Positions 36,601 to 36,809 of a DNA stretch of 64,000 bases are shown here, in pieces (position 1 is the first letter of the stretch; each line of letters opens with the position of its first letter). Source of the DNA: Deltaproteobacteria bacterium. Its GTDB lineage: Bacteria > Desulfobacterota > Desulfobacteria > Desulfobacterales > SpSt-501. The stretch lies in contig JACRCN010000079.1 in NCBI GenBank assembly GCA_016219005.1, positions 20,710 through 84,709 on the forward strand, in the 5' to 3' direction. The notes under the pieces are model-generated. The model did no database searches and was not told the origin of the DNA. It was given only the letters and a program-made list of their open reading frames with translations. The translations under genes and the position numbers were made by a program.

Positions 36601-36634
36601 AATAAAAAACCCCGGCCGAGGCCGGGGTTTTTTG
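36601..36634 (-). terminator. Intrinsic terminator of the argG leader (attenuator)
   Basis: RNA CAAAAAACCCCGGC-CUCG-GCCGGGGUUUUUUAUU, about 75 nt upstream of the argG start. Confidence 0.9.
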
Positions 36635-36654
36635 CGTCGTATGGTATGGTCGTT

Positions 36655-36747
36655 TTACTCATCTCCAGCGCAAAAAACACCCGGCCCGAGCCGGCTGCTA
36701 CGGCGACGGTTGCGACGGCGGAGGTGTTTGCAGGACAGAGTGTTCAT
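36655..36747 (-). CDS. Arg-rich leader peptide of the argG-carAB-argA operon
   Basis: Manual translation [30 protein letters not shown]; AGAGGT RBS upstream; 6 Arg in a 7-codon run. An in-frame TTG at 36750 is an alternative start. Confidence 0.8.
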
Positions 36748-36780
36748 CAACGAGATAACCTCTTCTATCAAACCGGCGGC

Positions 36781-36809
36781 AATATGACAAATGGGATAAT
36801 GCATGTCAA
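36781..36809 (-). promoter_or_regulatory. Sigma70-type promoter of the arg leader
   Basis: TTGACA-N17-CATATT with a TGn extended -10. Confidence 0.65.

Follow-up and report, generated by a model that had tools for sequence, protein, structure and literature searches.

A predicted arginine leader-peptide attenuator upstream of argG in Desulfobacterales and Chloroflexota-labelled genomes

The window analysed here is a 64,000-nucleotide (nt) stretch of contig JACRCN010000079.1 (assembly GCA_016219005.1, positions 20,710 to 84,709; Deltaproteobacteria bacterium, order Desulfobacterales), and the element in question is the leader of its argG gene, which encodes argininosuccinate synthase and is followed on the same strand by carA, carB and a gene for a GNAT N-acetyltransferase. 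On the minus strand, 345 nt separate a divergently oriented aminotransferase gene (start 36871, plus strand) from the argG ATG at 36526; this interval holds a promoter, a short upstream open reading frame (uORF) with a run of arginine codons, and RNA segments able to form either an antiterminator or an intrinsic terminator. A preliminary description made from the DNA letters had taken this arrangement for an apparent ribosome-coupled arginine attenuator. After folding and comparison with related loci, the leader is judged to be genuine: an Arg-specific attenuator of the classic leader-peptide class that seems not to have been described before and occurs in at least two phyla. Its parts are the following.

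36809-36781, minus strand: extended sigma-70 promoter (TTGACA at 36809-36804, 17-nt spacer, TGtCATATT at 36789-36781)
36763-36758, minus strand: Shine-Dalgarno-like AGAGGT, 10 nt before the ATG of the uORF and 7 nt before an adjacent in-frame TTG
36747-36655, minus strand: leader uORF, 30 codons plus stop (ATG at 36747, TAA at 36657-36655)
36720-36700, minus strand: Arg run CGC CGT CGC AAC CGT CGC CGT (RRRNRRR), six Arg in seven codons
36694-36681, minus strand: hairpin P1, CCGGC-UCGG-GCCGG, -14.0 kcal/mol with flanks; its 3' arm opens segment 2
36686-36669, minus strand: segment 2, the 5' strand of the antiterminator, GGCCGGGUGUUUUUUGCG; inside the uORF, pairs with 36636-36620
36636-36620, minus strand: segment 3, the 3' strand of the antiterminator, CGCAAAAAACCCCGGCC; equals the terminator 5' arm plus the A tract
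36633-36604, minus strand: intrinsic terminator AAAAAACCCCGGC-CUCG-GCCGGGGUUUUUU, 13 base pairs (bp) and U6, with a G+C core at 36627-36610

The argG leader and its two predicted folds

The preliminary description had listed a promoter TTGACA-N17-CATATT at 36809-36781, a ribosome-binding site, a 30-codon frame with its Arg run at 36720-36700, the hairpin P1 at 36694-36681, a 17-bp pairing between segments 2 and 3, and a terminator CCCCGGC-CUCG-GCCGGGG-U6, and had called for the folding of both conformers; all of these parts are present, with coordinates that match those first given or deviate from them by one to three bases. The promoter is the sole promoter-like site between 36300 and 37000 (one, against a shuffle mean of 0.2) and has 10 of 12 matches as well as a TG at 36789-36788. 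Its -10 element sits 34 nt upstream of the ATG of the uORF, a short frame which is thus placed downstream of the operon promoter and which possesses a start codon and an initiation signal, Shine-Dalgarno (SD) support being weak overall. Six of seven consecutive codons of the run encode Arg, ahead of a gene of the arginine pathway, so that the nature of the regulated gene fits that of the codon run; a seventh leader Arg codon, CGG, is found at 36693-36691, within P1.

The P1 hairpin is apparent from both sequence and fold. Segments 2 and 3 can pair over 17 bp around a single bulged U, a duplex that shows up both as inverted repeats (I1/I2) and in the folds, and segment 2 starts 14 nt past the last codon of the run, one more than first counted. 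The terminator (repeat I3, 100% complementary) consists of a stem followed by U6 and stands between the uORF and argG, whose ATG at 36526 lies 77 nt past the U run rather than the approximate 75 nt originally noted. On its own the terminator has a predicted folding energy of -23.5 kcal/mol (z = -4.8). If the RNA stops short of the 3' arm of the terminator, the antiterminator forms, at -34.7 kcal/mol (z = -5.5), and the complete leader of 99 nt adopts an extended antiterminator at -48.8 kcal/mol (z = -5.35); for each of the three, none of 200 shuffles was as good. A 181-nt fold gives the same picture of an extended antiterminator, and an RNA devoid of segment 2 folds into the terminator (-27.3 kcal/mol). 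Since the RNA folds as antiterminator or as terminator depending on the availability of segment 2, the two states are mutually exclusive.

The spacing of these elements relative to the reading frame is of importance for any ribosome-mediated switch. The 5' strand of the antiterminator is located within the uORF, downstream of the Arg codons; the stop codon is 12 nt past the end of segment 2 and 19 nt ahead of segment 3, and across 27 leaders the partner segment begins 4-26 nt after the run. A translating ribosome covers roughly 12-15 nt downstream of its decoding site, and the spacing of segment 2 and of the stop codon fits a footprint of this size.

Two further observations concern the leader and its promoter. 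A 7-nt stretch, AAACACC (36723-36729), directly precedes the Arg run and is complementary to GGUGUUU (36675-36681) inside segment 2; this complementarity is held with one wobble pair in several relatives (AAACAUC). The stretch could serve as a weak "segment 1", to be covered by the ribosome when it stalls; the pairing is absent from the predicted minimum-energy folds. The -35 hexamer is closely preceded, at 36822-36839, by an inverted repeat with two perfect 7-bp arms, GTGAAAT-N4-ATTTCAC, which could be the operator of some regulator or an UP element. It is loosely ARG-box-like, no ArgR having been found in the genome, and in a sub-clade of relatives two AT-rich near-palindromes (CTGAAAATTTTCG and GCGAAATTTTCGC) take its place.

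Conservation and distribution of the leader

BLAST searches find the leader DNA in 20 of 24 congeneric genomes and, in all 20 loci, directly upstream of argG. An Arg-run uORF is recognised by regular expression in 17 of these, with peptides keeping ..RRRNRRR..; the remaining three comprise an RRLCTRRR variant, a truncation at a contig end and a frameshift in a low-quality contig. At locus L002, from a 77%-complete genome (G013), frameshifts break both the leader uORF and argG and are probably assembly indels, not real decay. The genus keeps the promoter hexamers, the run, P1, the U-rich strand and the terminator, with a variable spacer between the stop codon and segment 3. Both hexamers are retained in the 19 aligned genus leaders that reach that far, the contig-end locus excepted. 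The start codon of the uORF is conserved in relatives, and the one locus without the ATG (L031) retains the adjacent TTG.

The comparison of argG upstream regions recommended in the preliminary description, which had made the interpretation depend on a conserved Arg run in orthologous leaders and had asked for covarying stems, reveals two kinds of constraint. The run is kept with synonymous CGC/CGT changes: inside it, the Arg-codon changes within the genus are third-position C/T exchanges, save for a single TGC in L017. The codons of the run are nearly all CGY, and of the leader Arg codons in the genus 40 of 100 are CGT, compared with 6 of 286 in argG. CGG accounts for 74 of the 286 argG Arg codons, yet for none in the runs of the 13 tabulated genus leaders, whose 14 CGG codons all lie in or adjoin hairpin P1. 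Downstream of the run the picture is different. In the genus alignment (A1, 21 sequences), the core stems of P1 and of the terminator are invariant, with 100% of cells paired in 21 of 21 leaders; the antiterminator is paired in 92.7% of cells, as opposed to at most 56% once the partner strand is slid, and its covariation score was reached by none of 500 shuffles. In P1 the four bases of the loop are free to vary, with changes in the encoded residues (L/P, G/R/W), and GGCCGGGUGUUU, which encodes G-P-G-V-F in the genus, is shifted by one base relative to the reading frame in other families, where it yields A-G-C-F. These residue changes and this change of frame, set against the synonymous changes of the run, indicate an RNA-level constraint in the former region and a codon-level constraint in the latter. 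The 3' half of the uORF is thus conserved as RNA, as the complement of the terminator arm, and the run as codons.

Beyond the genus, an ArgG search yielded 80 loci, of which the 77 with at least 200 nt of upstream sequence were used. Short ORFs with an Arg run, defined as at least four Arg in six codons, are present on the sense strand of 37 of the 77 loci and on the antisense strand of 11, the latter being partly the same CG repeats read backwards; ten rounds of mononucleotide shuffling gave a mean of 4.4 and a maximum of 7, and no amino acid other than Arg rose above 4 in these 77 upstream regions. A hairpin followed by a T-run is also found between the uORF stop codon and argG in 33 of the 37 (14 from the genus, 4 other Desulfobacterales-type loci and 15 labelled Anaerolineae/Chloroflexota), and the four loci without a terminator look like chance ORFs. 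The overall layout extends to the genus, to nine other Desulfobacterales lineages and to 15 Chloroflexota-labelled metagenome-assembled genomes (MAGs), with lengths of the Arg run and spacings that differ among lineages.

The terminator arms themselves vary by lineage (CCCCGGC, CCCCGAAC, CCCCGGAC, GACCUCGG, GCCUCGUC and CCCUCGGC). In 21 of 22 lineages the stretch that follows the run nevertheless pairs over 14-24 bp with the 5' side of its own terminator, beating at least 297 of 300 shuffles; for the one other lineage, 6 of 300 shuffles were as good. The complementarity of segments 2 and 3 is therefore kept even with an entirely different terminator sequence. Sequence, folding and comparison together establish the parts of the leader, the mutual exclusivity of its two states and their conservation.

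The distribution of the leader follows a subtype of ArgG. In a sample of 121 genomes from the order, identities to the query ArgG show a bimodal distribution: the two congeneric genomes, together with a few other families, stand at 77-88% and nearly all of the rest at 53-58%, with three genomes at 65-71%. In the other families of the order, an Arg leader with its terminator precedes 5 of 11 argG loci of the closer type and none of nine control loci with the ordinary ArgG type; two others among the 11 have a leader with a terminator and no Arg uORF. The Arg leader occurs only with the closer ArgG type, and the ArgG proteins of the genus are 75-79% identical to their closest Anaerolineae/Chloroflexota-labelled counterparts (70-79% across all those returned). 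The sequence comparison suggests that argG and its leader may have moved together between phyla; as it occurs in two phyla and only with one ArgG subtype, the leader offers a tractable case of a regulatory element moving with its gene.

The two groups of leaders differ in the way translation is likely to begin. Chloroflexota-type loci (L051-L082) have TTGAC 34-38 nt upstream of the uORF ATG, together with a TATGCT-like -10 element and no SD; this spacing and the lack of an SD point to a regulatory uORF that is leaderless or nearly so. In the Desulfobacterales copies, TTGAC lies 56-63 nt upstream in 17 of 22 cases, over a full range of 36-108 nt. In five Chloroflexota-type genomes, a leader 12-mer shared among them occurs in a uORF only before argG, in a search that would miss Arg leaders with other codon strings. 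Two loci from another family (L126 and L127, of genomes G137 and G065) have a TTGACA promoter and a terminator before an ArgG of the closer type, without an Arg-run uORF; the only short ORF in their leaders encodes MSDIFKINVN, and they may represent a decayed leader or another leader mechanism.

Within the genome under study, BLAST matches to the leader are limited to its own locus and its palindromic terminator. A genome-wide screen for Arg-run uORFs, noisy in this GC-rich genome, returned 450 short frames, reduced to 12 by an intergenic and terminator filter; only one of the 12, the argG leader, has the full attenuator layout. The most similar of the other candidates (MKRRRNRVRL, contig C60) was dropped, as no gene follows it on that strand.

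Proposed mechanism, known systems and competing explanations

Given these features, the leader probably functions as an Arg-tRNA-sensing, ribosome-mediated transcription attenuator of argG and, in this lineage, of carA, carB and the GNAT gene as well, an interpretation built on sequence comparison and modelled folds. From the position of the -10 element, transcription would start about 27 nt before the uORF, which we infer to be translated by a ribosome that closely trails RNA polymerase. Under a shortage of charged tRNA-Arg, this ribosome would stall in the CGY run at 36720-36700; its footprint would melt or cover the 5' arm of P1 and leave segment 2 (36686-36669) free. Free segment 2 would then pair with segment 3 (36636-36620) once the latter is made, sequestering the 5' arm of the terminator and allowing read-through into argG. 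When Arg-tRNA is plentiful, the ribosome would cross segment 2 and reach the TAA at 36657-36655, where it would mask the 3' part of segment 2 and leave segment 3 untouched, P1 re-forming behind it; segment 3 would then be expected to pair with segment 4, the 3' arm of the terminator, and transcription to stop at the U run (36609-36604), with a predicted RNA 3' end near 36604. Coupling of the ribosome to the polymerase and a response to arginine through Arg-tRNA are thus both implied by the model.

The layout is that of the trp, his, leu, thr, ilv and phe attenuators, as the preliminary description had maintained, and every feature of it that can be seen in a sequence is present and conserved. 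The shared features are a promoter-proximal uORF, a run of cognate codons, a terminator before the first biosynthetic gene, an antiterminator 5' strand in the 3' part of the uORF and a stop codon whose position would allow a ribosome reaching it to mask that strand. The argG leader differs from these attenuators in that it codes for Arg and has no covariance-model match, and it is found in Desulfobacterales and in Chloroflexota-labelled MAGs rather than in Proteobacteria or Actinobacteria. By comparison with trp, it is a two-state device with the antiterminator as its ground state, a P1 of only 5 bp and no strong 1:2 "superattenuation" hairpin. The short ORFs with polycysteine runs of mycobacteria are leaderless, cysteine-responsive attenuators, which the Chloroflexota-type leaders resemble in having a probably leaderless, or nearly leaderless, uORF with a run of one codon type; they differ in amino acid, in phylum and in possessing a clear intrinsic terminator, and the copy in the window further departs from leaderless polycysteine ORFs by its 5' untranslated region of about 27 nt with an SD.

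Arginine synthesis is the textbook example of an ArgR-repressed pathway, and T-boxes serve it in some Firmicutes. ArgR with its ARG boxes and the Arg T-boxes perform the job proposed for the argG leader, that is, the coupling of arg transcription to arginine sufficiency. T-boxes likewise read tRNA charging via a terminator and an antiterminator; in the argG leader, sensing would take place via the translating ribosome and not by pairing between tRNA and leader. The fungal arginine attenuator peptide (AAP) of arg-2/CPA1 is a conserved peptide that stalls the ribosome at termination under high free arginine and controls translation. It has in common with the argG leader a uORF ahead of a gene for carbamoyl-phosphate synthase or the arginine pathway and an arginine-responsive expression, which remains a prediction for argG; unlike the AAP, the argG leader is predicted to respond to low Arg-tRNA and to act on transcription termination. 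A conserved peptide of the AAP type is not seen either, as only the Arg run is conserved between lineages.

In the sources searched, leader-peptide attenuation was found for Trp, His, Leu, Thr, Ile/Val and Phe and not for Arg; it has also been described for Cys. A full-text literature search, whose scope leaves subscription journals and supplements aside so that a prior description is possible, returned no Arg leader-peptide attenuator of arginine biosynthesis; the search for a precedent suggested in the preliminary description thus yielded none. The comparative paper by Seliverstov et al. 2005 (PMC1262725), in its available text, ascribes the regulation of arginine genes at the RNA level to T-boxes; in the main text of a 2010 genome-wide attenuator survey (PMC2965389), as far as available, the word "arginine" occurs 0 times. 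The accessible part of PMC8632094 describes a carA motif and uORF motifs, none of them for Arg, that of PMC545781 makes no mention of an Arg leader-peptide attenuator, and that of PMC2659441 holds nothing relevant to Arg leader-peptide attenuation. The nearest bacterial precedent found, going by the accessible portion of Ben-Zvi et al. 2019 (PMC6386406), is orf34 of Salmonella speF, where ribosome pausing at consecutive Arg codons in low arginine selects the mRNA structure. In that account, orf34 has two Arg codons compared with six or seven in the argG leader, relies on Rho-dependent termination, unmasking of a ribosome-binding site and RNase G sensitivity rather than on an intrinsic terminator, and controls ornithine decarboxylase and hence polyamine synthesis rather than arginine biosynthesis.

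Databases do not hold the element either. Neither the window nor 20 related loci match any Rfam family at gathering score, T-boxes included. Below threshold, Leu_leader (RF00512, 22.1 against 50) and Phe_leader (RF01859, 17.4 against 55) match the terminator only, and no other Rfam leader matches in the window; the best Rfam match, rnk_pseudo (33 against 55 bits), was set aside as it covers mainly the terminator hairpin. Nine leader peptides have no Pfam or NCBIfam family match, and five are absent from a collection of 15 billion proteins, i.e., they were not called as genes there. A conserved Arg-run attenuator would fill the Arg gap among leader-peptide attenuators and, relying as it does on a sigma-70 promoter and an intrinsic terminator, would constitute a compact and portable Arg-tRNA sensor that should work in E. 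coli.

As to other regulators, the check for argR proposed in the preliminary description found no ArgR domain: PF01316 and PF02863 have no match in this 98.5%-complete genome, when controls were matched in 9 and 8 of 14 genomes, respectively. No competing regulator of argG was thereby found, which favours attenuation. The N-terminal DNA-binding domain of ArgR is over cut-off in none of the 121 genomes of the order; as ArgR is undetected order-wide, its lack is not specific to the carriers of the leader, and the attenuator would explain how argG is regulated in an order without detected ArgR.

Several points weigh against control of argG by Arg-tRNA charging. The minimum-energy fold of the full-length leader is the antiterminator, which makes termination wholly dependent on a closely coupled ribosome; according to the folding model, an untranslated leader would read through, unlike that of trp. 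Initiation is weakly supported, with a core SD in 8 of the 37 leader-positive loci. Within the genus, the invariance of the P1 and terminator stems leaves no covariation information, and only three antiterminator pairs are changed on both sides. The distribution is patchy, the Arg-run uORF being absent from 40 of the 77 ArgG-similar loci and from 6 of the 11 loci of the closer ArgG type in other families. A duplex test in a narrower window was passed by only 24 of 32 leaders. In a separate metric the 5' arm of the terminator was paired upstream in all 27 leaders, and in each of them two thirds or more of the stem bases took part, but only 2 of 27 satisfied a stricter threshold of 80% or more of the arm paired and no more than 5 of 100 shuffles equalling it; this metric is not discriminating because any G-rich sequence pairs with a C-rich arm. 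tRNA-Arg(ACG), the expected reader of CGY codons, was not found by aragorn in the draft, where 44 tRNAs include only the Arg anticodons CCG, TCG and TCT; as Ile-GAT is likewise lacking, the tRNA set is incomplete and the absence of Arg-ACG says nothing. Poly-arginine might slow ribosomes whatever the state of tRNA charging, and placing the sole carAB of the genome under arginine-only control would tie pyrimidine supply to arginine.

Other explanations can be envisaged, in which the leader answers to another signal or to none. The uORF may gate the terminator in response to translation speed or ribosome availability, to a slowing by the polybasic nascent chain, or to free arginine acting via the nascent peptide in an AAP-like manner. 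RRRNRRR is indeed a highly basic peptide, the two-state design implies that any ribosome slowing before segment 2 gives read-through, and a CGY-reading tRNA was not identified in the draft; signals of this kind are nonetheless considered unlikely. A sequence-specific nascent-peptide sensor is difficult to reconcile with a peptide that is unconserved outside the Arg run and an RNA motif that is read in different frames, and the CGY bias points to codon or tRNA identity, not to charge, since CGG, AGA and AGG encode the same peptide. Arg is, in addition, the only enriched residue, and the element is tied to argG, as is the 12-mer in the five Chloroflexota-type genomes.

It is still harder to regard the leader as an RNA-only or factor-dependent switch (a riboswitch, or a target of an RNA-binding protein or small RNA) whose Arg-rich frame is a by-product of a CG-rich binding sequence, an explanation to which we attach little probability. 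Nucleotide-level conservation of the stems and of a CGYCGCCGU string does extend across phyla, and the palindrome at 36822-36839 hints at an extra, factor-dependent control of the promoter. The only long conserved unpaired sequence is nevertheless the codon run, with its variation in third-position C/T; the frame is kept uninterrupted between the conserved start codon and its stop, which falls after segment 2 and before segment 3; no Rfam family is matched at gathering score in the window or the 20 related loci; and the length of the Arg run and its spacing vary by lineage, which a codon counter could tolerate and a binding site could not. Most improbable of all is a non-regulatory element, that is, an insulating or leftover terminator between divergent genes combined with a short ORF that arose by chance. 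The terminator does have a bidirectional form, with an A tract as well as a U tract, and GC-rich genomes yield many Arg-rich frames, as the 450 found before filtering illustrate; this is opposed by the position of the terminator, which on the argG strand follows a conserved strong promoter and precedes argG itself, by the divergent orientation of the neighbouring gene (start 36871, plus strand), so that nothing ends here, and by an arrangement which is unique to the argG leader among the 12 filtered candidates and is conserved across two phyla.

The operon behind the leader

The genes that the attenuator would control are listed below.

35261-36526, minus strand: argG, argininosuccinate synthase (NF001770, E = 4e-187, 622 bits, cut-off 334)
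34048-35154, minus strand: carA, carbamoyl-phosphate synthase small subunit (TIGR01368, 491.6 bits)
30831-34055, minus strand: carB, carbamoyl-phosphate synthase large subunit, with an 8-nt overlap with carA
30250-30813, minus strand: GNAT N-acetyltransferase (NF005840, 177.6 bits, cut-off 154)

Of the series argG-carA-carB-argA named in the preliminary description, the first three genes are supported by family models and the fourth, "argA", is not established: with NF005921, the model for amino-acid N-acetyltransferases, the GNAT protein reaches 112 bits, short of the cut-off of 180. It is possibly a short N-acetylglutamate synthase, and the "argA" label is plausible. No promoter-like or terminator-like site is present in the 106-nt gap between argG and carA. 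In the 80 related loci, carA follows argG in 18, with gaps down to 9-17 nt; it does so in every genus locus that is long enough and in four other Desulfobacterales loci. In the Chloroflexota-type loci carA is not behind argG. As carA is found behind argG only in Desulfobacterales-type loci, the link to carAB is a lineage-specific addition.

In this genome carB is single-copy, with one match over cut-off and three weak partial matches, and the predicted coupling of a sole carAB to an arginine signal poses a testable question on the balance between pyrimidine and arginine synthesis. A broader proposal can be advanced, though only tentatively, as something possible that falls short of probable: the leader would define a new class of attenuators responding to the charging of CGY-reading tRNA-Arg, spread as a mobile, "self-regulating" argG cassette in a leaderless form in Chloroflexota and an SD-led form in Desulfobacterota, and providing the main arginine control in ArgR-less lineages; in Desulfobacterales, it would also have captured the cell's sole carAB, so that the supply of carbamoyl-phosphate and pyrimidines would be gated by Arg-tRNA charging.

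Other arginine-related genes lie elsewhere in the genome. The best match to ornithine carbamoyltransferase belongs to a same-strand run of ORFs on contig C33 (approximately 37186-41335), and argH is located about 6 kb beyond this cluster; no leader was seen in the region of C33 holding argH and ornithine carbamoyltransferase, which was not examined systematically. The ORF that follows the ornithine carbamoyltransferase gene starts with MPKPLILIALGGNALIQKG, an N-terminal sequence that looks like that of a carbamate kinase, and the cluster may be a catabolic one of the arginine-deiminase type.

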